From the IMG/VR virus record IMGVR_UViG_3300049793_000080, positions 1 through 62,550 of that record: a stretch of 62,550 nt of DNA. One strand, written 5' to 3'. The translations under genes were made by a program, and so were the position numbers. The notes beneath the pieces were generated by a model, which was given only the letters and a program-made list of their open reading frames with translations, was not told the DNA's origin and made no database searches. This DNA comes from a virus. Taxonomy: Duplodnaviria > Caudoviricetes. Of this stretch, positions 6,948 through 60,583 are shown piece by piece; within the stretch, counting starts at the first letter, position 1; each line of letters opens with the position of its first letter.

Positions 6948-7253
6948 ATGTCGAAGATCCTGCCCACCGTGGGCCGAAACCTGTACTACCAGCCGGGCCC
7001 GGGGGAGATACTGGAAATCATCCAGCACCCGCCGAAGGACGACGAGGACAAATCGCAGCCGCTGCACGCGCACATCCTGTACGTGCACGACGAGCGCCAC
7101 GTCACGCTGGAGGTGGTCGACCACATCGGCAACCGTCACGCGCGCGGCGACGTGGTGCTGTGCCAGGACGGCGAGGTGCCCGACGAGGGCGGTGAATACT
7201 GCTACTGGATGCCGTATCAGACCTCGACAGCGAAAGAGGCCAAGCAATCATGA
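6948..7253 (+). CDS. Small phage protein (PTVGRNLYY...QPLHAHILYV...CYWMPYQ)
   Basis: GGAG RBS; motif pattern seen in phage accessory proteins. Confidence 0.75.
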   Translation: MSKILPTVGRNLYYQPGPGEILEIIQHPPKDDEDKSQPLHAHILYVHDERHVTLEVVDHIGNRHARGDVVLCQDGEVPDEGGEYCYWMPYQTSTAKEAKQS

Positions 7254-7942
7254 ACAACATCGAATCCCCCAACAACACCGACTCCAGCATCGAGCAGGAG
7301 ATTCAGGCCAAGGGCAAGACGGCGCCGCGCGTCACGCAGGCCGACTTCGACGCGAACATCATCAGCAGCGAAATCGTCAAGCATGTGTCGCCGTCAGGGC
7401 AGATCCTGCGTTGGGCCGTCATCACCACCGCCAGCGGCTTTGCCGTGACCGGCGACCCCTCGGCCGCAGTGTCGGCTGAGAACGACGACGCCAGCATCGG
7501 CGAACGCATCGCCATCGACAACGCGCGCAACAAGTTGTGGCCGATGATGGGCTACGAGCTCAAGCAGCGGCTGCACGAAGTCAGCAACGGCAATCTGGTG
7601 CGCCGCATCGCCCGCATGTGCCATGAAGTCAACAAGGCGTACTGCGAGGCGCTGGGCGACTTCAGCCAGCCGGCATGGGAAGACGCGCCGCAATGGCAGA
7701 AGGACAGCGCGATCACCGGCGTGTGCCTGCACATGATCAACCCGGACGCTGGCCCGCAGGCATCGCACGAGAGCTGGATGGCGCAGAAGGTGGACGACGG
7801 CTGGGTGTACGGTGCGGTGAAACGCCCGGAGGCCAAGGAGCACCCTTGCATCGTGCCGTTTGCCGATCTGCCGACCGCACAGCAGGCCAAGGACTTCATC
7901 TTCCGCGCCGTGGTGCACGCGGCTGTGGCTGACGCGCCATGA
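7250..7942 (+). CDS. Fusion of N4 gp49/Sf6 gp66-type domain with RyR domain
   Basis: N-half TAPRVT...GFAVTG..SAAVSAENDDASIGERIA..NARNKLWPMMGYELK; C-half SHESWMAQKVDDGWVYG...KEHPCIVPFADLP...KD. Confidence 0.85.
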   Translation: MNNIESPNNTDSSIEQEIQAKGKTAPRVTQADFDANIISSEIVKHVSPSGQILRWAVITTASGFAVTGDPSAAVSAENDDASIGERIAIDNARNKLWPMMGYELKQRLHEVSNGNLVRRIARMCHEVNKAYCEALGDFSQPAWEDAPQWQKDSAITGVCLHMINPDAGPQASHESWMAQKVDDGWVYGAVKRPEAKEHPCIVPFADLPTAQQAKDFIFRAVVHAAVADAP

Positions 7943-8205
7943 GCTTCGCTGTTCTCACCTTCCCCGAGGCCATGACGCTGGCGCTTGCCACCGGCGCCAA
8001 GGTGGCCCGCCAGGGCTGGAACGGCAAGGGGCAGCACGTTCGCATGACGCAGGGCACCCAGCGCTTTCGATTTACGCTGGAGGACTTCGTGGAGTACGTG
8101 GACGCGGACCCGTTCATGGTGCTGTGCAACGCGCAGGGGCGCTACGTGCCGTGGGCGCCAAGCCAGGGGGATTTGGTGGCGGTCGATTGGATGGAACTGC
8201 CATGA
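7939..8205 (+). CDS. tad2: DUF2829/Tad2-like nucleotide-signal sponge
   Basis: TFPEAM...GAKVARQGWNGKG...VPWAPSQGDLVAVDW signature. Confidence 0.85.
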   Translation: MSFAVLTFPEAMTLALATGAKVARQGWNGKGQHVRMTQGTQRFRFTLEDFVEYVDADPFMVLCNAQGRYVPWAPSQGDLVAVDWMELP

Positions 8206-8495
8206 GCGACGGCGCCTTCTATGCGATGGACCAACGACCGCGGTGGAGGCGCCTGCTTTCGCGTCTCTTCCCGCGCGATGCGTTCCAGGGGCTGGACGCG
8301 CCGACTCCCGGCATGTGCGTTGGCGAGATTTACACGCACGTCGAGGTGGATCTCGGTTGGCGTGATCTTCTGCGGCTGCTGGTGAGTGGGCGCGCGCACA
8401 TCGAGGTTCGCCTGGAGACGGACGCGCTGGTGAACAAGACGCGCAGCAGGGCGATGTTCACGGCGCTGCCGCCGAAGTGGCTGGAGCGGCAATGA
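8202..8495 (+). CDS. Hypothetical protein (WRDLLRLLVSG)
   Basis: ATGA overlaps at both ends. Confidence 0.7.
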   Translation: MSDGAFYAMDQRPRWRRLLSRLFPRDAFQGLDAPTPGMCVGEIYTHVEVDLGWRDLLRLLVSGRAHIEVRLETDALVNKTRSRAMFTALPPKWLERQ

Positions 8496-8845
8496 ACCGG
8501 CGCGGCTTTCTCGGCGGGCTCGCTGGATGCTTTGCAGCGGCGGCCGCGCCAGGCATCCTCGCGCAAGGCGTCATCATGCCGGTGCGCCGCATCGCGTTGC
8601 CCAGCGACACGATTGTGTTTCGGCGCTGGCTTCCTTACGGCAGCGAGGACCACTTTGTTGATGCGCTGCGGTACGGGCTCGGCGTGCGGGAGATGGAAGT
8701 CGGGAGGATAGATAATTTCCGGTTCATCGATGATCGCGAGGCGCCCAATGATCTGCGTAGCATCGAGTACATGAAGAATGCCATGTGGCGCAACATGATG
8801 GACAACATGACGATGGCCATCCCAGCGATTTGGCGCCCGCGATAG
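8492..8845 (+). CDS. Twin-arginine-leader protein made of capsid, terminase and portal motif copies (putative decoy)
   Basis: MNRRGFLGGLAG leader; FRRWLPYG, DHFVDALRY, EVGRIDNFRFI and NAMWRNMMDN match this genome's MCP, TerL, MCP and portal. Confidence 0.8.
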   Translation: MNRRGFLGGLAGCFAAAAAPGILAQGVIMPVRRIALPSDTIVFRRWLPYGSEDHFVDALRYGLGVREMEVGRIDNFRFIDDREAPNDLRSIEYMKNAMWRNMMDNMTMAIPAIWRPR

Positions 8846-8948
8846 ACTGCAACATGGAAACCGGGCCGGGCCTGCGCATTAGCACCGTGGGCACGGAGCA
8901 TCCTCACTGGACTAAACCCTGCTTCATGGGGGCCGGCCCGGCGACCTA

Positions 8949-8977
8949 TTGCGAATACTGGCGCAGTCTGTCACAAT
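8949..8977 (+). promoter_or_regulatory. Promoter of the moron-like gene 9014-9376
   Basis: TTGCGA-N17-CACAAT with TG extension. Confidence 0.55.
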
Positions 8978-9013
8978 GACACCGCTTCGATTTTGAAGTG
9001 ACAGGAGAACCGA

Positions 9014-9376
9014 ATGAAGACCTCACGACTTTGGGCCTTTGCCGCCTTGTGCGCGCTGGCCATGGCTTCCACCATCGCAGTGGCCCAGCCCGAGCCCACC
9101 CCCGCGCACCAGCGAATGTCGATCACCGCACCTGCCAGCACCAGCCCCGCCGTTCTCTACGTCACCGACGCCACCCCCACCGGCCAGCTCGCCGCGTTCT
9201 ACCTGGGTGACCAGTCCTGCGATGCCAAGCCGGCGCCGATGGCCCCGGGCAAGGGGAAAGGCAAGGACGGCGGAAAAAAGAAGTGCATCACGGCCAACAC
9301 GCCACTGGATGACGGCTACATGCAGGCGAAGTTCAAGAAGGGCAGCAAGGGTGGGAAGAAGCCGCCCTCGACGTGA
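9014..9376 (+). CDS. Secreted protein with Lys/Gly-rich tails
   Basis: AGGAG RBS; Sec-type signal MKTSRLWAFAALCALAMASTIAVA. Confidence 0.75.
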   Translation: MKTSRLWAFAALCALAMASTIAVAQPEPTPAHQRMSITAPASTSPAVLYVTDATPTGQLAAFYLGDQSCDAKPAPMAPGKGKGKDGGKKKCITANTPLDDGYMQAKFKKGSKGGKKPPST

Positions 9377-9932: not shown

Positions 9933-10841
9933 ATGATGGCCACATTCAATCCCAAAGCGCCGGAGGACGCCCAGCGTTTCTCCGGCGGCTTCGATGACAT
10001 GCAGGACGACGACCTGGGCGCAGCGGCCCCGGCCGCTGGCGCACCTGCAGCGCCGCGCAAGGTGTACGTCGAGCAGTGCGGCAAGTGCCACGGCACCGGC
10101 CGCTACCACGGGCCCAGCTCGCGCGGCAGCGATTGCTTCGAGTGCCACGGCCAGGGCAATCACACGTACACCACCAGCCCCGAGCAGCGCGCCGCAGCAC
10201 GCGAGCGCGCAGCCGCCAAGAAGCAGGCGCTGCTCGACGCGAAGTGGTTGAAGTGGGCCGCGCTCCACGAGAACGAGGCCGGCTGGATCTTGGCCAACAT
10301 GGAGAGCAACGACTTCGCGCGCGCCATGCGCATCGCCGCGGGCAAGTGGGGATCGTTGACCGATGGCCAGTTGCGCGGCGTGCATCGCTGGATGCTGACC
10401 GACGAGGACCGCGCCGCCGAGCGCATGCGCGCCGAGCTGACGGCCAAGCCGGTCAACACCGTCAACCTGGGCGCGGTGGAGACGGCGTTCAACCGCGCGA
10501 AGTCGCAGGGCATCAAGTGGCCCAAGCTGACGCTCGACGGCTTCACCATCAGCATGGCCGGCGCCGCGAGCAAGAACCCGGGCGCGATCTACGTGAAGCA
10601 GGGCGCGCGCGATGGCACCTACCTGGGCAAAGTGCTGAACGCCGGGTTTCAGCGCTCGCGTGACTGCGACGACGCCACCGAGGCGGCCGTGCTCGCTGCG
10701 ATGGCCGACCCGCTGGCCAGCGCCGTGGCCTACGGCAAGAAGTTCGGGCGGTGCGCCGTGTGCCACCGCGAGCTGAGCGACCCGGAAAGCATCGCTCGAG
10801 GCATCGGCCCCATTTGCCAAGACAGATTGTTCGGAGGCTGA
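9933..10841 (+). CDS. DUF6011-family protein with N-terminal DnaJ-type Zn finger
   Basis: CGKCHGTG...CFECHGQG and C-terminal CAVCHRELSDPESIARGIGPIC. Confidence 0.8.
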   Translation: MMATFNPKAPEDAQRFSGGFDDMQDDDLGAAAPAAGAPAAPRKVYVEQCGKCHGTGRYHGPSSRGSDCFECHGQGNHTYTTSPEQRAAARERAAAKKQALLDAKWLKWAALHENEAGWILANMESNDFARAMRIAAGKWGSLTDGQLRGVHRWMLTDEDRAAERMRAELTAKPVNTVNLGAVETAFNRAKSQGIKWPKLTLDGFTISMAGAASKNPGAIYVKQGARDGTYLGKVLNAGFQRSRDCDDATEAAVLAAMADPLASAVAYGKKFGRCAVCHRELSDPESIARGIGPICQDRLFGG

Positions 10842-11686: not shown

Positions 11687-12303
11687 CCGACCCGACCAAC
11701 GATGCCATCCAAAAGCTGGCGGCCGAACTGCCCGAGGGGTTCAATGTGGAGTTGAGCATCGAGCGCGGCTACGGTGGCGTGGAGTTGATCCTGCCGGGCG
11801 GGATGGCCGTGCCGGTGGAGAAGGACGGCGGCGGCATTGCCGGCCAACTGCTGGCCGCGCTGCGCATGGCGCGCGACGAGCACATCAAGACGAACATCAA
11901 GCACCAGGAGCCGTGCGAAGTGCTCGGCGTGCCGCCGGCCGTGGTGCTTGGCCCTGCACCTGTCTCGCTTCGACGGCAACCCAAGACGATCCCGCGTGAC
12001 ATAGACGCGAAGTGGGCCGAGCGCGAGGGCTACGTGCCCATGCCGCCCATCGTCATCAGGGTCCGGCCCGAGGCGCTGGCGCGCATCCAGTACGAGCGCA
12101 TGAGCACGAAGCAGTTGCGCATAGCGGTCAGCATGCTGGAGGAAGCCGGGCCCGAGTTCACCACATCCTTCATCGACGGCACAGGCGAGAAGCACAAGCT
12201 GCTCGGCACCACGGCCCACGCCATCGCCTTCGCGGTGCTGGCCGACCGTCTCAATCCCCCATTCCAACCACCGGCCAAGAAGGCCAGAAAGACGAAGCCA
12301 TGA
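11683..12303 (+). CDS. Hypothetical protein, probably two-domain
   Basis: GGAG RBS, ATGA overlap. Confidence 0.65.
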   Translation: MTDPTNDAIQKLAAELPEGFNVELSIERGYGGVELILPGGMAVPVEKDGGGIAGQLLAALRMARDEHIKTNIKHQEPCEVLGVPPAVVLGPAPVSLRRQPKTIPRDIDAKWAEREGYVPMPPIVIRVRPEALARIQYERMSTKQLRIAVSMLEEAGPEFTTSFIDGTGEKHKLLGTTAHAIAFAVLADRLNPPFQPPAKKARKTKP

Positions 12304-12437
12304 AACGCGCCATCATCACCGCCACTCTGCTCCTGTGCTCCCAGATCGCCCTCGCGACGACCGACTGGAAGTGCATGTCCGACTGCAGCCAGTCGGGCTA
12401 CCAGTACGGCTACTGCAAGAAGATTTGCACCTTTTAA
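12300..12437 (+). CDS. Small secreted Cys-rich peptide (45 aa)
   Basis: Signal MKRAIITATLLLCSQIALA plus TTDWKCMSDCSQSGYQYGYCKKICTF; ATGA overlap. Confidence 0.75.
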   Translation: MKRAIITATLLLCSQIALATTDWKCMSDCSQSGYQYGYCKKICTF

Positions 12438-16913: not shown

Positions 16914-17672
16914 ATGACCGAGCGCAAGAAGCCCATCCCGAAGCCCGAACCCGGCGCGAAGCGCCCGCGGGCCAAGGTGAAGCCTGCGCCGAAGAAGAAG
17001 GCCAAAGGCACGAAAAAGCAGGCTTTGCCGTGCGATACCGCCAAGTTCCCGCTTGCCGTCATCCCCGAGCCGCCACCTCCCCCGCCCTTTGTTCCGCCCA
17101 CCCCGAACGAGTTGTTCCGGGCGTGGCGCGACCAGGACGAGGCTGGAAACATCGCCATGGCTGATCTGGCCGATTACATCGTCTCGGAAGGACACCTGCC
17201 AGGGTTCTGCCGTGAACGCGGCTTTCCGTACAGCACTGTCCGGTCCTGGATTGAAGCGTCCGAGGCCCGAGTCGCCTTGTACGCGCGCGCACGCGAGGAC
17301 CGCGCGGACGTTTTCGCAGACAACACCCAGTCCATTGCCGACGAGGAATGCAGCGCGCCGGTGATCGTGCAGGGCGTGCTGGTGGGCTATGCGGTGGACT
17401 CTGCTGCGGTGCAGCGCAACAAGCTGCGCGTGGAAACCCGCAAGTGGCTGGCCGCGAAGATGAAGCCCCGGGTTTACTCCGACAAGCTGGACGTCACGGC
17501 CAACGTGACCCACGACATTCGCACGGTGTCGGACGAGGATCTGGTGCGCACGCTCAACGCGATGGGCGTCGCGGTGCCGGCACTGGGATCCAAGCCCGGG
17601 CAGGACGCGGCCAACGACCAGAAGGTGGGCATGCCTTCGATGCACACCAGCGTTCCGGTGAGGGCGGCATGA
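16914..17672 (+). CDS. terS: Terminase small subunit (Sf6-like)
   Basis: YARAREDRADVFAD...IADE...VQRNKLRVETRKWLAAKMKPRVYSDK. Confidence 0.9.
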   Translation: MTERKKPIPKPEPGAKRPRAKVKPAPKKKAKGTKKQALPCDTAKFPLAVIPEPPPPPPFVPPTPNELFRAWRDQDEAGNIAMADLADYIVSEGHLPGFCRERGFPYSTVRSWIEASEARVALYARAREDRADVFADNTQSIADEECSAPVIVQGVLVGYAVDSAAVQRNKLRVETRKWLAAKMKPRVYSDKLDVTANVTHDIRTVSDEDLVRTLNAMGVAVPALGSKPGQDAANDQKVGMPSMHTSVPVRAA

Positions 17673-19168
17673 GCGGCTTTAACCCCCTGGAGCTCAACGC
17701 GGTGCAGCGCGCCGAACTGATGTCCGCGCTGGCCGAGTACAAGCGCCGCCGCGGCATGCGCCTGATCGACCAGTTGTTCCCCGACGAAGGCCCGTACCGT
17801 CGCGAGCTGTATCCGAAGCACCTCGAATTCTTCGCCGCCGGCAAGAAGTACAAGCACCGCGTGTTCATCGCCGGCAACCGCGTGGGCAAGACCGTGGCGG
17901 CTGGCACCGAGTGGAGCTACCACCTCACGGGCCTGTACCCGGCATGGTGGGATGGCTACCGCTTCGACCGGCCCATCACGCTGCTGATCGCCGGCGACAC
18001 GCACGAGACGACGCGCGACATTTTGCAGGTCAAGATGGTGGGCGGCACGCGCGACCAGCCCGAAAAGCTGGGGACCGGCCTCATCCCCGGGCGCTGCATC
18101 AAGGGCTACGTGCCACGCATCCACGTGCCGGGCGCCATCGAGAAGGTGTACGTGCGCCACTACAACGCACATGGCGAGGAAGACGGCGAGAGCGTCATGT
18201 GGCTGCGCTCCTACGTCCAAGGCCGGGAAATCTTCCAGGGCTTCGAGCTCGATGGCTTCTGGCCCGACGAGGAGTGCCCGCCCGAGGTGTACCAGGAGGG
18301 GCAGGTGCGCCTCATGACCACGCGCGGCCTGTCCACCTTGTCGTTCACGCCGCTCGAGGGGCTGACTGAGCTCGTCTCCGGCTTCATGGGCCCGCCCGAG
18401 GACAACGAGAACGCCAGCCGGTTCGTCGTGTCGTGCGGCTGGGACGATGTTCCCCACCTGGACGAAGTCGCCAAGCGCGAGCTGCTGGCCAACCTGCCGC
18501 CGCATCAGAAGGACGCTCGCTCCAAGGGCATCCCGCAACTGGGCGCCGGCGCGATCTACCCGGTGCTGCCCGAGGACATCGAGGTGGACGACTTCGAGCT
18601 GCCCACGCACTGGCACCGCGGCTACGGCATGGACGTGGGCTGGAACCGCACCGCATGCCTGTGGGGTGCGTGGGACCGCACGGCAGACGTGATCTACGTC
18701 TACTCCGAGCACTATCGTGGGCAGGCCGAGCCGATCCTGCACGCTGCTGCCGTCAAGGCGCGTGGGCAGAGCATGCAAGGTGCCATCGACCCGGCATCGA
18801 AGGGCCGCCAGCAGGCTGACGGCAAGCAGTTGCTCAAGATGTACCGCGACCTGGGCTTGAACCTGCACGAAGCGAACAACGGTGTCGAGGCCGGCATCTA
18901 TGACGTGTGGCAGCGCCTGTCCACCGGCCGCCTCAAGTTCTTCAAGTCGTGCCGCAACACGATGGCCGAGTTCAAGATTTACCGCCGCGACCTCAACGGC
19001 AAGATCGTCAAGGCCAACGACCACGCGATGGACGCGCTGCGCTACCTGATCGCCACCCCGCGCGTGTTCGCGCCCGTGGTCAGCGAATACGAGCGCCAGC
19101 AGATCCTCGAACAAGAAACCGCCGACCAGGGTGTATTCATCCCGTTCGATCCGGGCATGAACATGTAA
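17669..19168 (+). CDS. terL: Terminase large subunit (P22-like)
   Basis: Walker A AGNRVGKT, Walker B FWPDEE, SFTP coupling motif, nuclease GMDVGW and DHAMDALRY. Confidence 0.95.
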   Translation: MSGFNPLELNAVQRAELMSALAEYKRRRGMRLIDQLFPDEGPYRRELYPKHLEFFAAGKKYKHRVFIAGNRVGKTVAAGTEWSYHLTGLYPAWWDGYRFDRPITLLIAGDTHETTRDILQVKMVGGTRDQPEKLGTGLIPGRCIKGYVPRIHVPGAIEKVYVRHYNAHGEEDGESVMWLRSYVQGREIFQGFELDGFWPDEECPPEVYQEGQVRLMTTRGLSTLSFTPLEGLTELVSGFMGPPEDNENASRFVVSCGWDDVPHLDEVAKRELLANLPPHQKDARSKGIPQLGAGAIYPVLPEDIEVDDFELPTHWHRGYGMDVGWNRTACLWGAWDRTADVIYVYSEHYRGQAEPILHAAAVKARGQSMQGAIDPASKGRQQADGKQLLKMYRDLGLNLHEANNGVEAGIYDVWQRLSTGRLKFFKSCRNTMAEFKIYRRDLNGKIVKANDHAMDALRYLIATPRVFAPVVSEYERQQILEQETADQGVFIPFDPGMNM

Positions 19169-19176: not shown

Positions 19177-21666
19177 ATGGCCAAAGAATCATTCGCAAGC
19201 ACCGTGGCCGACTCATTCAACGACGAGGCGCCCGAGGACTCGGTGCATGCACAGCGCATCGCCGCCGCCCAGGCGCTGGGTGACGAGCTGCTGCCCAAGC
19301 GCAAGGAGGCCATCGACGGCAAGAAGGCGACTAACATCGAGCAGGACTGGCAGGAGGACGAGGAGTTCTACCAGTCCATCGATGCGGCCAACCCCGAGGG
19401 TGAGACGAACGTGGGCAAGCCGGTCAGCACCGAGGGCGGCCCCATCGGCGTGCAGAAGACTGCGCCGCGCCGCTCCAGCGTGTTCCTGCCGCTGACGCGC
19501 CCCTACGTCGACGCCGCGGCCGCACGCATCGCGGACATGCTGCTGCCCAACGACGACATGCCGTGGAGCCTGAAGCCCACGCCGATCCCGGAGACAGGCT
19601 CATCGCCGGACATGCAGCCTCCAGGCAAGCCCACCGCCGTAGCTGCAGCTGCGACTGGTGGCGACCCGGCCGCATCGATGATGGGCACGCCCCCGCTGGC
19701 GGCTGACATGATGAATGCGGGCCCGGCTGCACCCTCCACTCCGGCCATGGGCAGCACCACGGGCATGGCCGGGCCACTGTCCATGGGCGCGCCAACCGCG
19801 ATGGCGCAGCCGCCCATGAACCCGGCGCAGGCCATCATGGCGCAGCCGGCCGCCGTGGCCACCGCCGCGCCCGACGAGGACGGCGTGGAGAAGACGCCCG
19901 AGGACAAGGCCGCCGACGCTGCGACGAAACAGATCACCGACTGGCTGATCGAGTGCCAGTACCACGCCGAATTCCGCAAGATGCTGGAGAACGCGGCGAA
20001 GCTGGGCACCGGCATCCTCAAGGGCCCGATCCCCTTCAAGCGCGTCAGCCAGAAGATGGTGCGCAACAAGGACGGCACGCAAACGCTCACGCGCGTGGAG
20101 ATGACCGTTCCCATCTCGGTCAGCATCGACCCGCGCAACTTCTTCCCCGACCCGGCATGCGGCGAGGACGTGCAGCGTGGCGGCTACACCTGGGAGTACG
20201 ACACTCTCTCGGCGCGCGTCGTGCAGGAGCTGCTCAAAGACGACAGCTACATCCACGAGCAACTCAAGAAGGTGCTGCGCGAGGGCCCGGCAAAGCAAGG
20301 CGAGGCACCGCGTAGCCCCCAGGCAGATGGTGCCCAGCGCTCCCTCATCGGCTCGTCCTTCGGCGTCTGGTACTTCCACGGCATGGTGGAGCGCGAGGTG
20401 CTGATCGCCGCGGGCATTGAGCCGGACGAGTTCAGCCCCGAGATGGCCGAGATGATGAGCGTGCCGGCCATCATCACCATGATCAACGACACGGTGGTGA
20501 AGGCGGCGCTCACGCCGATGGACATGGGCGGCTTCCCGTATGACGTCATGCCGTGGCAGCGCCGCGCTGGCATGCTGTGGGGCATGGGCGTCGCGCGCCA
20601 GATGCGCACGCCGCAGCGCATCGCCAACGCCGCCATGCGTGCGCTCATGGACAACGCCGGGTTCACCTCCGGGCCGCTGTGGGCCGTGCGCAAGGGCTGG
20701 GTCAAGCCCATCGACGGCTCGTGGGAGCTCACGCCGCGCAAGGGTTTCGAGATGACCGACAAGGCCCCGGACACGGCCAAGATCGGCGACGCCATCACCT
20801 TCACTAACGTCCAGGCGGCGCAGGCCGAGCTCGAGCGCATCGTGCAGTTGGCCATGAAGCAGGCCGAGGATGCCACCGGACTGCCGATGCTGATGCAGGG
20901 CCAGCAGGGCGCCGCGCCGGACACGGTAGGCGGCATGACGATCCTGAACAACAACGGCTCCACCGTGCTGCGCCGCATCGCGCGGCAGGCCGACGACTGC
21001 GTGACCGAGCGCCACATCCGGCGGTACTACTACTGGCTGCTGGAGAACAGCAACAACGAGGCGGCCAAGGGCGACTTTCAGATCGACGCGCGCGGCAGCA
21101 CGGCGCTGGTGGACCGCGAGCTGGCCAATCAGGCGCTGGTGCAGCTCGCGCCCATCCTGGAAGCGGACCCGGACATCCACAAGGAGCGCTTCCACACCGA
21201 ACTGCTCAAGGCGCACCGCATCGACCCGAAGAACCTGTTCATGACCGCTGCCGAGAAGAAGGCGCGCGACGCCAAGGGCGCTCCGGTCGACCCGCGCGTG
21301 CAGGTGGCGCAGATCAACGACGCCGGCGAGACGACGCGCCACGAGAAGGAGTTGATCGCCAAGCACGTCGACGCGACCGAGGACCGCAAGGTGGACCTCA
21401 AGAAGATCGAGGCCGAGTACGAGGCCTTCCTCGGCAAACTGGCGCTCGACCAGGGAGTGAGCAAGGACAAGATCAAAGAGTCCCTGTTCAAGACCACTTC
21501 GACGCTGAACACGCAGGTGGCCCTGGCCAACGCCGCGCGCGAGCACCAGTCGAACGAATCGGGCGCCGACCGCGCGCAGGGCGACGCGCACAAGGCCATC
21601 GACGTGGCCACCGCCGCAGCCGAGCCCCCCGACAAGGCCAAGGCAGGACACGCCTTCGAGCAATGA
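19177..21666 (+). CDS. Portal protein
   Basis: 829 aa after terL; AAKLGTGILKGP, IDPRNFFPDP, WGMGVARQMRTPQ...NAAMRALMDN. Confidence 0.9.
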   Translation: MAKESFASTVADSFNDEAPEDSVHAQRIAAAQALGDELLPKRKEAIDGKKATNIEQDWQEDEEFYQSIDAANPEGETNVGKPVSTEGGPIGVQKTAPRRSSVFLPLTRPYVDAAAARIADMLLPNDDMPWSLKPTPIPETGSSPDMQPPGKPTAVAAAATGGDPAASMMGTPPLAADMMNAGPAAPSTPAMGSTTGMAGPLSMGAPTAMAQPPMNPAQAIMAQPAAVATAAPDEDGVEKTPEDKAADAATKQITDWLIECQYHAEFRKMLENAAKLGTGILKGPIPFKRVSQKMVRNKDGTQTLTRVEMTVPISVSIDPRNFFPDPACGEDVQRGGYTWEYDTLSARVVQELLKDDSYIHEQLKKVLREGPAKQGEAPRSPQADGAQRSLIGSSFGVWYFHGMVEREVLIAAGIEPDEFSPEMAEMMSVPAIITMINDTVVKAALTPMDMGGFPYDVMPWQRRAGMLWGMGVARQMRTPQRIANAAMRALMDNAGFTSGPLWAVRKGWVKPIDGSWELTPRKGFEMTDKAPDTAKIGDAITFTNVQAAQAELERIVQLAMKQAEDATGLPMLMQGQQGAAPDTVGGMTILNNNGSTVLRRIARQADDCVTERHIRRYYYWLLENSNNEAAKGDFQIDARGSTALVDRELANQALVQLAPILEADPDIHKERFHTELLKAHRIDPKNLFMTAAEKKARDAKGAPVDPRVQVAQINDAGETTRHEKELIAKHVDATEDRKVDLKKIEAEYEAFLGKLALDQGVSKDKIKESLFKTTSTLNTQVALANAAREHQSNESGADRAQGDAHKAIDVATAAAEPPDKAKAGHAFEQ

Positions 21667-23654: not shown

Positions 23655-24698
23655 ATGGCAATTCAACTCACTACCACCCAGACCGCGCGGGTAAACAAGC
23701 TCAAGGGCGAAATCATCGCCCACGCGGAGCCCAAGGAAGTCCTGGGCATCACCGGCGACCAGAAGGACATGGCGAAGAACGTGGGCAACACCTACATCTT
23801 CCGACGCTGGTTGCCATACGGCGGCGTCGACAACAAGTGGGTCACCGGCGCCAACGTTGCCGCGTTCGCGACCAACCACCTGGGCGTCGAAGGTCAGACC
23901 CCGGCGGCCGACACGCTCACGGCAGTGGACATCACCGTGGTGCTGAACCAGTACATGTGCCTGTACGCGGTGACCGACCAGACCGTCGACCTGTACGAGG
24001 ACAACATCCCCACGGAGATGAAAGTCCAGACCGGCCAGCGCATCGGGCTCGTGCGCGAGATGGTTCGCTACGGCGTGCTCAAGGGCATGACCAATGCCTT
24101 CTTCGCCGGCGGCACCACGCGCGGCACCGTGGCGGCATCGTTGACGCTCAACATGGTGCGCAAGGTCACGAAGTCGCTCCAGGCCAGCCACGCCGAGATG
24201 ATCGGCAAGGTCATCGCCGCGGGTCCGCACTTCAACACCAGCCCGGTGGAGGAGACGTATCTGGTGTTCTGCCACACCGACATGGCACCGGCCATCCGTG
24301 ACCTGCCGGGCTTCACCAAGGTGGTGGAGTACGCCGGCATGAAGCGCATTCACCCGCTGGAAATCGGCGCGTGCGAGTCGTTCCGCTTCATCCTGTCGCC
24401 GGAATTGGCCCCGTACATCAACGCCGGCGCCGCAGTGGGCACGCTGGGCCTGTACTCCACGGGCGGCACGCTGATCGACGTCTACCCGGTGATCGTGGCG
24501 GCCGAGAACGCATGGGGCCAGATCGCGCTCAAGGGCAAGAAGTCGCTGGACGTGACCTGGATTCCCCCGGGCACGAAGGACACCAACGACCCGCTGGGCC
24601 AGCGCGGCTACATCGGCGCCAAGACGTACTTCAACTGCACGATGCTCAACCAAGGTTGGGCAGCGGTGGTTGAGTGCGGCACGCCGGATCTGGCGTAA
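23655..24698 (+). CDS. Major capsid protein, N4-gp56 family
   Basis: AAGGAG RBS; FRRWLPYG, EGQTP, EIGACESFRFI, DVYP, DPLGQRGYIGAK. Confidence 0.93.
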   Translation: MAIQLTTTQTARVNKLKGEIIAHAEPKEVLGITGDQKDMAKNVGNTYIFRRWLPYGGVDNKWVTGANVAAFATNHLGVEGQTPAADTLTAVDITVVLNQYMCLYAVTDQTVDLYEDNIPTEMKVQTGQRIGLVREMVRYGVLKGMTNAFFAGGTTRGTVAASLTLNMVRKVTKSLQASHAEMIGKVIAAGPHFNTSPVEETYLVFCHTDMAPAIRDLPGFTKVVEYAGMKRIHPLEIGACESFRFILSPELAPYINAGAAVGTLGLYSTGGTLIDVYPVIVAAENAWGQIALKGKKSLDVTWIPPGTKDTNDPLGQRGYIGAKTYFNCTMLNQGWAAVVECGTPDLA

Positions 24699-35975: not shown

Positions 35976-38900
35976 ATGGACATCACCGCGGCACGCAGCT
36001 TGCCCGAACTCGCCGGCCTGGACGACGATCAGATCGTTGACGCACTCCATCAGGCCTATTACCCCGACCTCCCCCGAGATGAAGTAGCCAAGTCGCTTGG
36101 CATCAAGCCCACGGCCGCGCCGCGCCCGGAGACGACCTGGGGCGACCGTGCGAAGGACACCGGCATCAGCTTGCTGCAAGGCGCCGTGGCGGTGCCCCAG
36201 GCGGCGGTGGGCGTTGCGGATCTGGTGACCGGCGGCGCGGCGGGCAAGCTGGCCGAGGATGTCGGGTTCCGACCGAAAGAGGCGACCGACTTCCTGGGCG
36301 AGCGCTTGAGCGACGCGCAGAAGGGCGCGAACAAGGAAGTGCAGGACGCCGAGGGCTTTTGGGGCACCTTCAAGGCCGCCGTCTCCAATCCTTCGGTGGT
36401 GTTCCAGTCGGTGGTGCAGTCGCTGCCTTCCATGGGCGCGGGCGGCGTGGTGGCGCGCGGCGTGCTGGGCGCGAGCATGACGCCGCGCCTGCTGGCCAAG
36501 CTGTCGGCCATGGCCCCCGAGGCGCGCGAAGCCGCCATCCTGGGCATGCAGACCACCGCCGGCGCCGTGGGCGAGGGCGCCGTGCAGGCCGGCAGCGCCG
36601 CCGAACAGGCGCGCACCGACAACCCGCTGGGCACGCTGGACGGCAAGGGCGCGCTGTCGGCCGTGGCCAGCGGTGTGGGCGACACCATCATCGCCCGGTT
36701 CAGCGGGCGCCTCGCCAACAAGCTGGGCATCGCGGACGCGGACACCATGCTCGCTGGCGCCGCGGTGAACCCGCGCGCGGCCAAGAGCGTGGTGAAGGCC
36801 GCGCTCGGCGGCATGGTGACCGAGGGCTTGCTCGAGGAACTGCCGCAGTCGGTGCAGGAGCAGGTGTGGCAGAACCACGCAGCCGGCCGCCCGCTCGATG
36901 AGGGCGTGAATCAAGCCGCCGTGCTGGGCATGCTGTCCGGCGCGGCGATGGGCGGCGGTGCCAACCTTCTGAACGCGGCTCGAAAGCCGAAGCCCGACGA
37001 CATCCTGAACGCGCCGGACGTCGACGCCGCGCTGCAGACCGCGCAGGACGCGCTCCTGTTGCCCCCGCCGACGATCAGCGTCACGCTGGGCGGTACCGCC
37101 GTCACGCCGGAGCAGCGCGCGGATCTGGTGCAGCAGGAAATCACGCGCCGCGCCGCCGGCATGATGGGCGGCGAGGACGTCACCGATGTGCAGGCCAAGG
37201 GCACGCCGCCGGTGGAAGTGCCTCCGACGACGCCACCCTCGACCCCCCCAGCCTTCCCGGACCCGTTCAGCGCCGCCAAGCCGGTGGACCTGGACGCGAA
37301 CGAAGCGCGCATGCACCGCGACGCCGACCGCGACGCCCAGGCGCTCAAGGAGCACGACCCGCTGACCCTGCCGCGCAAGGGTCTGCCGGAGCTGGACGCC
37401 GAGTACGGCAAGGGCGAGGGCGACACGATCCAGAAGAACGGCGCGCCGTGGCCCAGCGAAGCGGCGGCGATGCTGTCGCTCAAGATGGCCAAGAAGAAGG
37501 GCCGCGCCGTGCCGGTGGCCGGCGGCTTCATCGCGCGACCGAACAAGGAGACACCCAATGCAGCGCCCACCCCTGAAAACAAGCCTGACGGCGCTCGCGG
37601 CGCACAGCCTGCTGCAGCAGCACCGGCCACCGACGCCGCCACTGCCCAGCGACCCGACGATCAGCATGGAGGACTTCCTGCGCCCGACACGGGAATTGCA
37701 GGCGGCAGTGCGGCGGCTGTCGCGACCCAGCCCGCGCCCGGCGGGCAAGTCGTGGGCGCAGGCGACGCTGCGCGCACACCTGGAGACGGTGTACTACGGC
37801 CAGTCAATGACGCGGCTGTGGATGGAAGAGATGAACGGCCAGCCGATGGCCGAGCGAGTGGACCCGTATCCGCACCCGTGGCAGCGGGAGCAAATGACGC
37901 GGGAACAACTACTGGCGCTGCAAAAACCGGAAGTGAGCAATCACTAACCGAAGCTGGCGCGCAATGGACCCGCATGACGGAAATCGAGCGCCGCGCCGTT
38001 GCGGGCCGCACGGCAGGTAAGGCGAAGGCGCTAGATCGCATCGTCTCGCAGAAGTGGGAAGACCTACATTCCGGCTGGCAGAAATCCCTCGCGCGGGTGA
38101 TGAACACGCCCGGCGCGCCGATTGCTCCACGTGAAACGTCAGCGCCCACTTCGCACCCAACCGCCAGCGCAGGTCCGCGCGTCATCATCAATCGGCTCGG
38201 CCCTGATGGTCTAACCGACGCCGAGCGCGCGGCTGGCAAGCCGTCCTATGCCGACAAGCCCGCCGAGGTGACGAGCGAGACGGCGCGACGCGGCGATTTC
38301 AACGTCAAGAACCACCTGGGCAAGATGGAGCGCGCGACCGTGACCGAGGGCGGCACACGCGGCCGGTTCGCCGTCAAGATCGGCGGCGAGTCCATGGGCC
38401 AGTTCCAGATGGACGACCAGGGCGCGGTGAGCCGCATCGAGGCGCGCGCCAACTGGGCCGAGGATTCCGTGCGTGACGCGGCGATGCAGTTCGTCGCGCA
38501 GGAGCGCGCCAAGACGGCACCGGCCGCCGCCGAGCAGCCGCGCGACCAGGACACCGGGCAGTTCGCGGAAGCCCCGGCCGACACGCTCCCCGCTGGCGTG
38601 CGTCGCCGCGAGAAGGGTGTGGCAAACACCAAGGCGCGCATCGCAGCCGAGGCGGCCCGCGCGGCGTACTTCACGCCCGGCAACGTGGTGCGCGGCTATG
38701 GCGGCTTCGATGAGGTGCTTGCGTACAACCCGCCCACCGAGCCCGGAGGCGCATGGAGCGTGCGCGTGCACGAAGTCAAGGAAGCCACGCCCAACAACTG
38801 GGTGCGCGTGGGCCGCCCCCAGGACGCGCGACAGCACAGCACCGAGCCGGAGGAGCGCGAGCTGCGCAACGGGCCGCGCGCCCAGTTGTCGGCCCTGCCC

Positions 38901-41900
38901 GCCAGCGAAGTGCCGTACACCGTGCCGCGTGCCGATGGCAAGGTGCACCCGGATGCCGAGCCGCGCAGCAACCCGCGCGCCGCAGCCGAGCCCGCCAAGA
39001 TCGTGACCGACAAGGCCGAGATTCGCCCATACCGCCGCTCGGACGGCAGCGTGGGCTACGAGGCCGTGCCGATCCAGCCGCCGGCCGCGCCGAATGACGA
39101 ATTGATCGTTCAATCCATTCGACCCGGCTCCAAGCCGCACGTTGTCAAGGTGGAGCCTGCGCCCGCCGCTAGCACAAACAAGGTGTTCACCGACGAGATG
39201 GCCGCCGCAGCGCGCGCCCGCCTCAAGGCCAAGCTGGGCCGGCTGAATTCGCTGCTGGACCCGCAGGACATGCTCGACGGCATCACGCTGGCCGGCTACC
39301 ACGTCGAGAAGGGCGCGCGCAGCTTCGCCGCCTTCGCGCAGGCCATGCTCGCGGATCTTGGCGAGGGTGTGCGCGCCCACCTCAAGAGTTTTTACATGGG
39401 CGTGAAGTATTCGCCCGCCGCGGCCGAGTTCTCCAAGGACATGAGCAGCGCCGCGTTCGTGGAGGAGTTCGACCTGTCGCATATCGCGGCGCCGTCCGAC
39501 ACGGACACCCTTGAAACTCAGCCGCCCGCGGCAGATACTGGAGCCAATGATGGAAGCAGCAGCCCAACACTCGACGTGGATCGCGCAGGCCCGGGGCCAC
39601 TGGAAGGAGCACCTTCCGGGGATGTACGCGCGCCTGCAGGAGAGCGGAAAACTGGAGACGGCACTGGCCGAAGCAGCGACGGCGACCAGCGAGGGGATGC
39701 ACGCCCTGATGCAGCAGGGGGCAACGTGGCAGGAGGCGTGGGAGCAGGTGCGGGAACAGTACCTGTTTCCACCGGAGGAGCCGAGCAAGGAAAAGGCCCC
39801 GCCAAGCCAAGGGTACCGCGTACACCGCGAGCTGATGGCGGGCCTGGGCTCTTTGACGATGCCGGGGGAACGGGAGGAGTAAACCCGGCCCCGAACGCCG
39901 CGCCCACGCCGGCGCCGCAGTTCAAGCCGTCCGAGGACTTCACCATCGAGGATGACCTCGCGCTGGGTGACGGCGGCGAGAAAACCAAGTTCAAAAACAA
40001 CGTGGCGGCGATTCGCCTGTTGCGCGAGCTCGAAGCGGCCGACCGCATGGCGACACCCGACGAGCAGCGCACGCTCGCCCAATACGTGGGCTGGGGCGCC
40101 TTGTCCAAGGCATTCGACGCTGACCGCGCGGAATGGGCCAAGGAGCACGCCGAGCTCAAGGATCTGCTGTCGCCCGAGGAGTTCGCCGCAGCGCGGCAAT
40201 CCACCCGCTACGCGCACTACACCAGCCGCCAGATCATCCAGGACGGCGTTTATGCCGCGCTGCATCACTTCGGCTTCACCGGCGGGCGCGTGCTCGAGCC
40301 GGGCGCCGGCGTGGGCAACTTCATCGGCATGATGCCCGCCGACATGCGCAGCGCGGGCCGCATCACGGCCATCGAGCGCGAGCCCATCGCCGCCGGCATC
40401 GCCAAGAACCTGTACCCGCTGCAAAACGTGCAGCAGGCCGACTTCACCGCGTTCAAGGGCACCGATGGCTATTTCGACGCGGTGGTGGGCAACCCGCCGT
40501 TCGCCTCCGACCCGCAGACCGACACCAGCGGGCGCAAGCACCTGGGCGGCCTGACCCTGCACAACTACTTCTTCGCCAAGAGCGTGGACCTGATGCGCGA
40601 GGGCGGGATCTTGGCGCAGGTGGTGACCAACTCGTTCATGGACGCGGCCGGCGACCGGGCCCGCAAGTACATCAGCGACCGCACCAAGCTGATGGGAGCC
40701 ATCCGCCTGCCGAACAACGCATTCAGCAAGAACGCGGGCACCGAGGTGACGACCGACATCATCTTTCTGCAAAAGCGCCCGGAGGCCGAGTGGGGCAACA
40801 AGGCGACGCGCCAGGAAGCCAAGGCGTGGCTGGACGTGGTGAAGCAGACCGACCGGCGCAACGGCGGGCAGTACAACCTCAACCAGTATTTCATCGACCA
40901 CCCGGAGATGATGCTCGGCGACTTCGGCGCGCACGGCACGATGTACGGGCCCAACCAGCCGGCGCTCATCGCCCGGCCGGGGCAGGACACGCTCGCACTG
41001 CTCCGCGAGGCGGTGCAGCGCCTGCCGGGCAATGTGTTCGTGGACCGTGCGGTGCTCGGCACCGACGCGGCCATCGAGAACGCCACCAAGGCCCTGACGA
41101 ACCCGCCGGTGCAAGAGGGCGGCTTCTATGTCGAGGGCGACAAGCTGATCCAGCGCGTACCCGACATTGCCGGCGAGCCGCGCGGCCGGGAAATCAACGC
41201 CGCAACGCAGTGGACTGCCAAGACGCCGCTGGGGGAGGCGGGCTACCAGAAGATCCGCGCGCTCACGCAGATGCGCACCACGCTGCGCGGACTGCTGGCG
41301 GCCGAATTGTCCGGCGACAAGGACATGGACGCCCTGCGCACGACGCTGGGCAAGCAGTACGACGACTACACCAAGGCGCACGGCCTGCTGGGCGACCCGG
41401 GCACCGCGCGCGTCTTCGATGACGACCCGGATTTCCCGCTGCTGCTGTCCCTGGAGCACGAGTACCGGCCCGGCATCGGCATGGCCGCGGCCAAGCGCCA
41501 GGGCATCAAGCCGACCAAGAGCGCGGCGAAAAAGGCGCCGATCTTCATGCGCCGCGTGGTCGACGCGCGCAAGCCGGTGCAGAAGGTGGAGACGCCCGCC
41601 GACGCGCTGGCCGTCTCGATGGCCGAGCGCGGCAAGCTCGATACCGTCTACATCGGCCAACTGCTCGGCAAAGACCCGCAGGAGGTGTTGAAGGAGCTGA
41701 GCACCGGCGACAAGCCGCAGCTGTTCCTGGACCCGGCGACCGACGAATACGCGCTGCGCGACGCCTACCTGTCGGGCAACGTGCGCGCGAAGCTGGAGCA
41801 GGCCAAGCAGTCCGGGCTGAGCATGAACGTGCGCGAGCTGGAGAAGGTGCAGCCCGAGGACGTGGGCGCGCATGAAATCTCGGCGCGCATCGGCTCGCCG

Positions 41901-51610: not shown

Positions 51611-51677
51611 GCCGGAGGCCGCAAACCGTCCGGCGGGCCCTTATTGGATTGGGGGCCTTCTCCAGCAGGGGTTTCAT

Positions 51678-51710
51678 AGGGCCGCTCGGAGGCAACCGGG
51701 CGGCCCTTTT
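51678..51710. terminator. Terminator between the convergent arms
   Basis: AGGGCCGCTCGG-AGGCAA-CCGGGCGGCCCT-TTT. Confidence 0.7.
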
Positions 51711-51714
51711 CTCG

Positions 51715-51906
51715 TCAGCGGGCGGTGATGTGGATGCCGCGCTCGGCCAGCAGCTTGGCGCGGCCTTCGGGGCTGGCGATGCGATACAGCCAGTCCTGGC
51801 CCAACTCCTCGATGGCATCGATCACCCGCAGGTATTCGGCGGCGGTGACGTCTTGGTGCGCGCGTGCGGGTGGCTGCGCGGTGCGGGTGACTTCGAGAGT
51901 AAGCAT
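51715..51906 (-). CDS. Small independently promoted protein (63 aa)
   Basis: AAGGA RBS; own promoter. Confidence 0.7.
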   Translation of the reverse strand: MLTLEVTRTAQPPARAHQDVTAAEYLRVIDAIEELGQDWLYRIASPEGRAKLLAERGIHITAR

Positions 51907-51968
51907 GTTCGCGTCCTTTCCATGGTGCGGCCAACCTTGTAAGTGGCCGCTCACTTGCGGTGACGCGG

Positions 51969-51997
51969 AATGTAATATGGGAACTTTCAGCCGTCAA
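51969..51997 (-). promoter_or_regulatory. Sigma70-like promoter
   Basis: TTGACG-N17-TACATT on the minus strand. Confidence 0.65.
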
Positions 51998-51999
51998 GC

Positions 52000-52500
52000 T
52001 CAGGTATTGCCGCCGGATCGATCCCCCGGGGGTGCGGATGCAGATGGAGCGGCGCCGTCGATGAGGCTGGTGAACTTGGCCCACGTCAGGCACCAAGCGC
52101 ACGGCTTGCCCGCCTTCGCGCCGTTGTCCGAGTCCCAAATGCCGGGAACCTCGTGTCCGTGGCCGGGAGCGTTTCCCCCATCGTCCTCATCCATCTCGCG
52201 AAACACAGCCTCAAGAATCGCGCGATCCTCGGCCGAAAGCGAAATGGCCCGCGCATCGGGTGCTGCTGGTGCAGGCGTGGCGAGTGCGACGACTGCATTT
52301 AAGTCGGCAAGGCCCACGCGATCCAGCGCCAGCTTCGCGCGCCCGTCGATTTCGTTGTCCGGGTAGGCTCCCATGCGCAGCTCGTGGAGGAACGTCGCCA
52401 GAATCGCCAGCTTGTGCGAATCCTGCCGCGCCTCTGGTAGCGCTCCTACCTGACCAACTTTCAGCGTTGCATCTTCGGATTGGAGAGGTTGATAAGTCAT
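52000..52500 (-). CDS. Hypothetical protein (PGHGHEVPGIWDSDN...CAWCLTW)
   Basis: AGGAG RBS. Confidence 0.7.
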   Translation of the reverse strand: MTYQPLQSEDATLKVGQVGALPEARQDSHKLAILATFLHELRMGAYPDNEIDGRAKLALDRVGLADLNAVVALATPAPAAPDARAISLSAEDRAILEAVFREMDEDDGGNAPGHGHEVPGIWDSDNGAKAGKPCAWCLTWAKFTSLIDGAAPSASAPPGDRSGGNT

Positions 52501-52506
52501 GTCGGC

Positions 52507-52713
52507 TTACTCCTGTGGCTGTATGGTGGGCTGGGTAGATGCAAGGGCGGCGTGCCTCTGCACACACTTGGCGTCCTTGACGCGGATCCGAGCTGCGGTA
52601 AAGGACTTCATCGATTCGCATTCAGCGAGAGAAGCAATGCCCGGGATCGATCGCATTTCGCTCTGTCCAGATAGCAGCGATACCACCACGTAAAAAAGGG
52701 TGTATGAGGTCAC
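52507..52713 (-). CDS. Small hypothetical protein with hydrophobic N-terminus
   Basis: AAGGAG-N8-GTG. Confidence 0.55.
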   Translation of the reverse strand: MTSYTLFYVVVSLLSGQSEMRSIPGIASLAECESMKSFTAARIRVKDAKCVQRHAALASTQPTIQPQE

Positions 52714-52751
52714 GGTGTCGGCTCCTTCGGGGTCTGTAGGGAAATGGATTT

Positions 52752-53069
52752 CTAAGGAGCCGTTGGGTCCATGGTGACGAAGGTCATTTCCCACCATGGA
52801 CCAGTTAGCAGTTTGTTCTCGTTCACCGGATACACAAGTTTGAGAGCGGCCACTGGCAAGCCCCGCTCACACGCAACACCGAACGCCTTGAACCCCGCGG
52901 CCACGGGCCCGAAGAAGCGCACGGTAGGCTCCGCAAACGGGTGCCCCTCTCCGCCCTGACAGGATTCAAAGGTTTCTACGCCGCCTTCCTGCAAGGCAAG
53001 TACATAGGACCGTATGCCGGAGTCCAACGCCATATCCAGCCCAGCTTCAAATGATTCACGAGCTGTCAT
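52752..53069 (-). CDS. Hypothetical protein (GVETFESCQG motif)
   Basis: ATGA overlap. Confidence 0.7.
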   Translation of the reverse strand: MTARESFEAGLDMALDSGIRSYVLALQEGGVETFESCQGGEGHPFAEPTVRFFGPVAAGFKAFGVACERGLPVAALKLVYPVNENKLLTGPWWEMTFVTMDPTAP

Positions 53070-57389: not shown

Positions 57390-57445
57390 GGTGGGTTGAA
57401 TTTGTTGCCGCAGAATCCGCTGCGGCGCCGGAGCACGCCGAAGTG

Positions 57446-57685: not shown

Positions 57686-57714
57686 TTGAAGTTTCCTATT
57701 TGATTTCAGTTGGT

Positions 57715-60577: not shown

Positions 60578-60583
60578 TGCAAG

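Follow-up and report, generated by a model that had tools for sequence, protein, structure and literature searches.

A family of small phage proteins that join an export-type leader to short copies of conserved head-protein segments

A leader and a string of head-protein motifs in one small protein

The window analysed here (62,550 bases; IMG/VR record IMGVR_UViG_3300049793_000080) is a complete viral record whose ends carry direct terminal repeats. At positions 8492-8845 it encodes a protein of 117 amino acids, P0001, in which an export-type leader is followed by a string of short segments, termed beads in the following, that resemble the major capsid protein (MCP) and the large terminase (TerL) of the same phage. 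Comparison with its relatives places P0001, as a typical member, in a large, fast-evolving new family in which an export-type leader is joined to selected copies, in shuffled order, of those segments of the phage lineage's head proteins that are most conserved. As for its function, we favour, with a probability of roughly 0.4, the reading that P0001 is a self-mimic acting in phage-host conflict, most likely in counter-defence, whose beads would compete for a putative motif-reading binder. The gene came to attention through an original prediction, made from the letters of the window, of a decoy protein stitched from capsid, terminase and portal motifs. That observation is partly confirmed and its interpretation partly supported by the present analysis; the leader, which has the look of a twin-arginine-type export or membrane signal, had been passed over.

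The beads were scored as ungapped BLOSUM62 high-scoring segment pairs (HSP) and with a hidden Markov model (HMM) of the MCP. The open reading frame (ORF) and its parts are as follows.

8483-8495, + strand: GGAG Shine-Dalgarno-like box (8483-8486) and ATG (8492-8494) overlapping the TGA of the upstream gene (8493-8495), from sequence reading
8492-8845, + strand: ORF of P0001, 117 amino acids, leader-plus-motif-string protein; open frame, GC content by codon position, last gene of an overlapping same-strand cluster
8492-8569, + strand: leader, residues 1-26, MNRRGFLG followed by an Ala/Gly-rich hydrophobic stretch up to AQG; common to the 87 family proteins
8570-8605, + strand: post-leader motif VIMPVRRIALPS (family form 'LMPV+xIxxP'), aligned by hhalign with MCP residues 31-44
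8606-8653, + strand: bead M1, DTIVFRRWLPYGSEDH, copy of MCP residues 45-60; HSP score 64, hhalign E 3.2e-7, MCP HMM 12.4 bits
8642-8674, + strand: bead T, SEDHFVDALRY, copied from the TerL nuclease motif at residues 450-460 of TerL, assigned from recurrence and positional clustering in the family
8693-8728, + strand: bead M3, MEVGRIDNFRFI, copy of the MCP hairpin (residues 235-246); HSP score 40, MCP HMM 5.5 bits at residues 232-250, recurring in relatives
8753-8806, + strand: bead 4, LRSIEYMKNAMWRNMMDN, of uncertain origin (portal residues 476-493 or an MCP helix bead); HSP score 42 against the portal protein

All eight peptide strings and the codons quoted in the original prediction were found in place by a sequence check. 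The HSP scores of P0001 were compared with those of 2000 shuffles, and a six-frame scan of the window was run with 60 shuffles. The score of 64 between bead M1 and the MCP was reached by none of the 2000 shuffles (mean 27.4, maximum 52), and the top six-frame score among the 60 shuffles was 56, which is below that of M1. Over the 16 residues of this match the nucleotide identity is 67%, with a synonymous divergence (pS) of 0.67 and a non-synonymous divergence (pN) of 0.24, which bears out the claim that the codons differ at synonymous sites and that the match is at the protein level. An alignment of 50 MCP sequences, compared with P0001 by hhalign, gave a probability of 93% and an E-value of 3.2e-7, with MCP residues 31-60 lying on residues 21-54 of P0001. 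The residues matched by P0001 fall on invariant columns of the MCP, namely R50, R51, L53, P54, G56, E236, G238, R244 and F245.

The claim that all four segments match late proteins held for MCP residues 45-60 alone and for the four jointly, but not for the other three taken singly. Bead T attains an HSP score of 40 against TerL, a score attained by 41 of 2000 shuffles, and the score of 42 between bead 4 and the portal protein is attained by 31 of 2000. Because approximately 4.35 HSPs with scores of at least 40 are expected per shuffled query over the six frames, beads T, M3 and 4 are each at chance level when considered singly. The joint test used a curated proteome of 64 genes (19,356 amino acids), with residues 36-117 taken as the cargo, and 500 shuffles. 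The MCP, TerL and the portal protein together comprise 8.7% of the residues of this proteome, yet they own all four top cargo HSPs, an outcome observed in 0 of 500 shuffles (three of four: 1 of 500).

P0001 is nevertheless not a member of the N4-gp56 MCP family, the full-length HK97-type proteins of which have about 350 residues, since 30 columns align, plus a weak second piece. Neither does it possess the TerL nuclease domain PF17289 (Terminase_6C, an RNase H-like domain of about 150 residues): no Pfam match was obtained at E ≤10, and the motif of 9-11 residues alone is present. A Tad2 domain, looked for in P0001 by profile search, was absent, and searches of Pfam, PHROGs and NCBIfam with P0001 returned nothing beyond sub-threshold models of twin-arginine translocation (Tat) signals. 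The ESM Atlas gave no usable feature match, and its model of P0001 (predicted local distance difference test, pLDDT, 0.53; predicted template modelling score, pTM, 0.19) leaves the cargo without a confident predicted fold.

A family of leader-plus-bead-string proteins

A phmmer search of 1.84 billion representatives (clusters at 50% identity, E ≤0.001) returned 87 matches, 85 of which are small proteins that align from residue 1; two long repetitive proteins were dropped. The family set analysed in the following comprises 87 proteins of 75-164 amino acids (median 109), namely P0001, P0005-P0007 and 83 new ones. The family leader follows the pattern MNRRGFLG..AAP..(L/I)MP(V/I)(R/K) and opens a protein of about 60-170 amino acids, and P0001 fits this description. 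By a word-based search only three weak relatives were recovered, which share the leader and carry the same motifs in a different order; no close homologue of P0001 was found in this way, though MCPs with 88-89% identity to that of the phage exist. The closest relatives have a leader nearly identical to that of P0001, followed by different beads in a different order, and the shuffling of beads in these sequences is the behaviour expected of independent short modules rather than of a folded domain.

A scan of IMG/VR for the DNA pattern of MNRRGFLG yielded 110 stretches, mostly small ORFs with a hydrophobic continuation and highly varied cargo. The exact start of the leader was found at only 121 places in the 596 billion bases of species-representative genomes (6 loci), and a metagenome scan for the leader gave at least two loci. 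When P0001 and two relatives were searched by tblastn against 50,697 GenBank phages, cargo matches were absent or weak, one of them lying under a major capsid protein (E 0.3); the low-complexity filter may hide the leader in this search. The GenBank relative nearest by MCP has no ORF for a leader protein. Ten other leader proteins were assigned to no family in PHROGs and gave two weak fragment matches, to head-tail adaptor and baseplate wedge profiles.

The sources of the beads were further assessed over the whole family. With an HMM built from 50 MCP homologues, 15 of the 87 cargos scored at least 6 bits, compared with 0.1 per shuffled set, and the matches fell on six discrete MCP segments (residues 4-33, 35-63, 82-117, 119-147, 229-252 and 311-344). 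An AlphaFold2 model of the MCP was poor (mean pLDDT 55.7), so that only its secondary structure was used, and cautiously; in this low-confidence model the copied segments map to a strand (46-54), to helices (120-138), to a hairpin (236-247) and to C-terminal strands. With a TerL HMM of 58 homologues, 14 of the 25 best family matches lay on TerL residues 439-473, compared with 0-2 in each of ten shuffled sets. The motif DH..DA.RY is present in 47 of the 58 TerL homologues, and a relaxed form of it in 13 of the 87 family proteins. Bead counts by regular expression were written after the sequences had been viewed and are descriptive only.

Taken together, these family-wide beads confirm the architecture of the original prediction, a leader followed by short copies of late-protein motifs, and support the two MCP beads and the TerL motif as to their source. 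The portal segment fared less well: clustering of the top family matches on portal residues 460-505 was weak (9 of 25, compared with 1-6 in shuffled sets), and on the sequence comparisons a portal bead in P0001 is not established. Bead 4 may instead come from the MCP helix bead REMVRYG, through intermediates recognised by eye among the relatives.

In the literature, supplementary files aside, we found no description of leader-plus-bead-string proteins, and Pfam and PHROGs hold no model of them, which agrees with the earlier statement that no comparable system has been described. We rate the family as a new kind of phage protein.

Leader genes are often arranged in tandem or present in several copies, and 11 records hold two or three of them (e.g., L211 8323-9026, + strand; L066 6792-7865, - strand). 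Leader proteins of a class with 162-171 amino acids are encoded directly upstream of a coat gene (L100 3502-3996, - strand; L142 13074-13559, - strand; L186 1262-1774, - strand). By eye and by one weak alignment, this class seems to join N- and C-terminal segments of the P22-type coat protein in a mini-capsid-like manner; a PHROGs search with it found no family.

Relation of the cargo to the genome of origin

Each cargo was compared with a pooled set of 113 records (2.6 Mb), made up of 44 whole IMG/VR records and further loci, which contains 85 leader proteins in 75 clusters. The record of origin was ranked first among the approximately 113 for 15 of the 85 leader proteins (14 of 75 clusters), and second to sixth for nine more, the window being at rank 2; matches to the phage of origin are thus well above expectation. 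The proposal that the cargo of leader proteins follows the structural families of the phage that encodes them is thus borne out, at the level of the family and not of the exact variant. The capsid partners are of the P22-coat, Phage_capsid_3, HK97 (protease-fused), Phage_capsid_4, SU10-like and N4 types. Other partners are a Mu-type portal (87% identity over 45 amino acids), a large terminase (62% over 16 amino acids), a Gp80 head fibre and three large proteins without known family.

Leaderless small genes served as a control. A match of at least 36 bits to the genome of origin was found for 7 of 85 leader proteins and for 5 of 600 leaderless small genes, three of the latter being tandem paralogues; at 28 bits or more the counts were 13 of 85 and 16 of 600, respectively. 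The counts for leader proteins were taken after removal of 8 self matches (100% identity), and one of the control matches turned out to be a leader protein whose start is extended.

In 7 of 11 pairs of cargo and source, pS was 0.58-0.83 and in an eighth 1.09, so that synonymous sites are saturated, while pN was 0.2-0.44. Because the residues are retained although synonymous sites are saturated, the copies appear to be old and kept by selection on the residues. One pair is a recent duplication with 89% nucleotide identity to the portal gene. A role as recombination cassette at the DNA level was considered and set aside, the nucleotide identity being 47-71% in all pairs but this one.

Two further observations were made in these records. 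In one of them (G005, ORF starting at 51797, + strand), a leaderless ORF of 62 amino acids copies 34 residues (59% identity) of a 1024-residue protein of the same record; therefore, self-fragment genes occur outside the leader family, too. In another (L245, G037:C1:37664-40525), a stop-free frame of 954 amino acids holds a Mu-type portal domain together with sigma-70 regions 2 and 4; it represents one fused gene or else two genes with no stop between them.

The leader

An alignment of 19 leaders gave the consensus MNRRGFLGxxLAxxAAPAIVRAExLMxIxVP, in which R3, R4, G5, F6, L7, A16, P17 and M26 are invariant; M26 and P31 of the post-leader motif are (nearly) invariant. With N-R-R-G-F-L-G at residues 2-8, P0001 fits the twin-arginine consensus (S/T)-R-R-x-F-L-K, and in most relatives a basic residue precedes the small-x-small site (VRA or VKA). 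The Tat model TIGR01409 matched 7 of the 19 leaders at E ≤1, the best of them (member 1) with 16.6 bits at a cut-off of 16.7. By its sequence the conserved leader of about 38 residues thus looks like a minimal twin-arginine export signal or a signal anchor.

Signal-arrest-release (SAR) domains are Gly/Ala-rich, weakly hydrophobic N-terminal helices that are able to exit the membrane, and the composition of residues 6-25 fits this type by eye. A lipobox (LAGC, residues 10-13) was also considered and is probably coincidental, as most relatives have no cysteine.

One and the same leader is found alongside MCPs of at least five unrelated families. Because of this, its partner is more likely a host machine than a capsid.

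Genomic context

Genes are encoded on the + strand up to about 51.6 kb of the window and on the - strand beyond. The neighbours of P0001 and the late genes with which its beads were compared are listed below.

7250-7942, + strand: gp49/RyR gene (Pfam PF13876 and PF02026)
7939-8205, + strand: Tad2-like gene (PF11195, E 6.6e-19)
8202-8495, + strand: gene of 97 amino acids without family assignment (no family found)
17666-19168, + strand: TerL (PF03237 and PF17289), source of bead T (19013-19045)
19177-21666, + strand: portal protein (PF23899, SU10_portal), possible source of bead 4 (20602-20655)
23655-24698, + strand: MCP of the N4-gp56 type (phrog_1357, E 2.5e-51), source of beads M1 (23787-23834) and M3 (24348-24392)

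The arrangement described in the original prediction, in which the gp49/RyR, Tad2-like and 97-residue genes are followed by P0001, upstream of TerL, portal and MCP, was recovered. At E ≤1e-10 the MCP has 1406 homologues, which one source names the N4-gp56 family. The codon-position GC content of the P0001 ORF (0.61/0.46/0.77) resembles that of the neighbouring genes and is unlike that of the other two frames. An ATGA overlap joins the start of P0001 to the stop of the 97-residue gene, and P0001 is probably translationally coupled to this gene, to judge from the sequence. These results mark the P0001 gene as a genuine accessory gene in a complete N4-gp56-type phage of 62.5 kb, located upstream of the late genes.

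A scan for intrinsic terminators after the P0001 ORF found no such site. The gap of 168 bases that follows the gene (8846-9013) contains the GC-rich inverted repeats CCGGGCCGGGCC ... GGGGCCGGCCCGG, where the terminator scan reported nothing. The next gene (9014-9376, + strand) encodes a protein of 120 amino acids that has a Sec-type signal of the classical kind (MKTSRLWAFAALCALAMASTIAVAQP) and a tail rich in Lys and Gly, and for which no Pfam family was found. Further downstream, a CxxC-repeat protein (9939-10841, + strand) shows weak matches to cytochrome c and to the DnaJ zinc finger and a C-terminal DUF6011 (E 4e-13). An ORF of 45 amino acids with a signal-like start and six cysteines (12300-12437, + strand), which surfaced in a relaxed leader scan, recalls a secreted cysteine-rich peptide.

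A single open frame of 4418 amino acids extends over positions 35976-49232 (+ strand); at the equivalent place, the closest GenBank relative encodes a 'coil containing protein' of 3145 amino acids (L001 3686-13123). The strand switches near 51.65 kb, and the minus-strand block (51650-62550) contains a RecE-like exonuclease VIII (60584-61417, phrog_412). Five genes were tested, and none of them proved to encode an integrase. Homologues of TerL with 59-63% identity are named in genome records of Comamonas, Variovorax, Rhodoferax and Pantoea. These names hint that the host is betaproteobacterial (Comamonadaceae) and that the phage has relatives among prophages.

Possible function

In the reading that we favour, the beads would function as independent short linear motifs. 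They would be presented unfolded, as segments that nascent capsid and terminase chains expose as well, and would compete with these chains for a binder of such segments. This putative binder might be a defence sensor that reads motifs, of the type of Lit, CapRel or SecB-like chaperones, or else a chaperone or a protease, while the leader would tie the string to the inner membrane or pass it through. We favour a role in conflict because the family turns over fast, the gene is absent from the closest GenBank relative, an anti-Thoeris Tad2-like gene lies nearby, and hosts possess readers of such segments. Lit and CapRel are reported to detect the MCP via short sequence motifs (PMC13581612), and the SecB-like HigC to recognise patterns of aromatic residues in gpV, a tail protein of lambda, which is reported to compete co-translationally for HigC (10.1101/2024.02.24.581848). 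In a bolder form of this reading, which we hold to be unlikely, the family would be a programmable class of counter-defence proteins found across many lineages of tailed phages: leader-tagged strings of the phage's own least mutable capsid, terminase and portal peptides would intercept readers of nascent or unfolded structural proteins, for example motif-reading sensors or sensor chaperones, and by way of the twin-arginine leader sequester or evict them at the Tat translocon, with beads being swapped along with the sensors.

Several observations weigh against the self-mimic reading. Three of the four segments of P0001 are at chance level when taken singly, and its leader lies below the curated cut-offs of both Tat models (TIGR01409, 15.2 bits, cut-off 16.7; PF10518, 10.5 bits, cut-off 22.7). 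At the same time, such a leader predicts export or an outward-facing topology, which would remove the beads from the cytoplasm, where the sensors and the nascent capsid and terminase are located. For the two capsid beads of P0001, the MCP of the phage itself ranks only 16th and 32nd of 50 related MCPs, which suggests that the beads are family signatures that have not co-evolved with its own MCP variant. Many leader proteins have no detectable match in their own phage, although many of the respective records are incomplete. Lit and CapRel, moreover, are activated by binding. Because binding switches such sensors on, a plain copy might trigger rather than blind them. HigBAC is likewise triggered upon recognition of the phage protein by the chaperone (10.1101/2024.02.24.581848). 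Avs/STAND sensors are described as enclosing monomeric targets around their folded core, over extensive interfaces of complementary shape (PMC13581612), which a disordered string of pieces of 10-25 residues would mimic poorly.

The main rival is an assembly-directed role, in which the copied segments would dock on the phage's own capsid, portal, terminase or scaffold as a homotypic ligand; the leader would then tether head assembly or packaging to the inner membrane, couple the timing of lysis to the late proteins, or mark a small virion protein. The partners are all proteins of head morphogenesis that meet at the portal vertex, and in modules of the P22-coat type the leader genes share the strand of the capsid gene and precede it by approximately 1.2 to 3.6 kb. 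Recurrent neighbours include proteins of 474 and 810 amino acids that are terminase- and portal-like by eye. The mini-capsid-like class of 162-171 residues (by eye and one weak alignment) and the coincidence of beads with core strands and helices in the low-confidence MCP model point in the same direction. A precedent is P22 gp7, whose N-terminal 20 residues are removed by a host protease before assembly (PMC4992974). However, a leader shared among unrelated MCP families suggests a host component as the partner, and the beads tile the whole MCP, including buried elements, as well as the catalytic helix of TerL, so that no docking surface is obvious. Shuffled bead order and fast turnover are unusual for an assembly factor, and the closest GenBank relative manages without the gene. 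On balance, we regard this role as unlikely.

The second alternative, which we consider rather improbable, is that P0001 is an exported or membrane effector, Tat- or Sec-exported, and acts in superinfection exclusion, envelope remodelling or as a secreted pro-peptide. The beads would then be mere raw material from duplicated pieces of head genes, a likeness without a mimicry function. The leader is in line with this, with its RRxFL, its short Ala/Gly-rich hydrophobic region and, mostly, a basic residue before the small-x-small site, as are its near-threshold matches to TIGR01409. The same start is also found on plainly exported phage enzymes, one of them lysozyme- or chitinase-like by eye, and the recent duplication of a portal gene shows raw material of this sort. 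However, the saturated synonymous sites and kept residues of most pairs imply long selection on the copied residues. Moreover, beads on the same invariant MCP columns and the same TerL motif recur in shuffled order, which would not be expected of random raw material, and such fragments are rare in leaderless small genes.

The exact model of the original prediction was an early cytoplasmic decoy carrying multiple pathogen-associated molecular patterns, which occupies Avs/STAND and CapRel-type sensors without activating them. Its string architecture was confirmed, and the gene adjoins a Tad2-like anti-defence gene and precedes the late genes; dedicated Avs families exist for the sensing of MCP, portal and terminase, and the MCP is also sensed by CapRel (PMC13581612). 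Yet a portal bead is not established, the export-type leader speaks against a cytoplasmic sponge, and MCP sensors bind the A-domain capsomer interface (PMC13581612), which short unfolded pieces cannot reproduce. As Avs sensors respond to folds, P0001 is unlikely to be an Avs decoy, and we consider this model as a whole very improbable. A chance resemblance in a non-functional or untranslated ORF, for which the chance-level scores of three single matches might be cited, is close to refuted by the FRRWLPYG match (0 of 2000 shuffles), the joint top-four test (0 of 500), the hhalign E-value of 3.2e-7, the 85 small-protein relatives recovered by phmmer and the gene-typical codon-position GC content.

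How phages protect proteins that they cannot mutate is an open question. If the self-mimic reading in its bolder form were true, it would be the first example of a virus shielding itself behind copies of conserved epitopes of its own, and the Tat pathway would for the first time be seen to serve the evasion of bacterial immunity. Should the strings be decoys or baits, they would point straight to the peptide epitopes that host factors read, and the leader would provide a simple handle for finding more of them. Should the phage's own head proteins be what they bind, this would instead uncover a so far unrecognised, membrane-linked layer in head assembly or in the timing of lysis. The family is widespread (85 small-protein representatives and dozens of examples on viral contigs), and it shows that 'orphan' phage genes are decodable by comparison with the structural genes of the same genome.

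Comparison with known systems

P0001 resembles Tat signal peptides (TIGR01409, PF10518) in its M-x-R-R-x-F-L motif and in the Ala/Gly-rich region of 12-18 residues, but differs from them in that the conserved block of its family (LMPV+xIxxP) extends beyond the putative cleavage site. The substrates of Tat are as a rule folded and often bear cofactors, whereas the cargo of P0001 is a short string without a confident predicted fold.

Short or unfolded segments of phage structural proteins are recognised by Lit (the Gol peptide of T4), CapRel and HigC of HigBAC (PMC13581612; 10.1101/2024.02.24.581848), and the beads are objects of this kind. Lit, CapRel and HigC are host sensors, unlike P0001, which is encoded by the phage. 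We know of no phage-encoded motif copy that counters Lit, CapRel or HigBAC.

Among the proteins by which satellites and prophages interfere with virion assembly or DNA packaging, CpmB of the Staphylococcus aureus pathogenicity islands (SaPI) shares the C-terminal capsid-binding helix of the helper's scaffold, i.e., it copies a short segment of an assembly protein. The tail assembly blocker (Tab) and Gpi of the phage-inducible chromosomal island-like element (PLE), which binds TerL, are likewise small proteins that act on virion assembly or packaging (PMC10884400; 10.1101/2024.04.22.590561). Unlike P0001, however, Tab, Gpi and CpmB are products of a competitor, directed against another phage, and have neither an export leader nor a bead string drawn from several proteins. 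The P22 ejection protein gp7 is a small podovirus protein whose N-terminal leader is removed by a host protease (PMC4992974). It differs from P0001 in having 229 amino acids and in entering the virion. To our knowledge, gp7 has no similarity to head proteins.

Phage anti-defence sponges such as Tad2, which the window encodes two genes upstream of P0001 within one operon-like cluster, are likewise small accessory proteins. Tad2, however, consists of a folded domain and binds a signalling nucleotide, whereas the presumed ligand of P0001 would be a protein. We infer that P0001 may act in a sponge-like, competitive mode.

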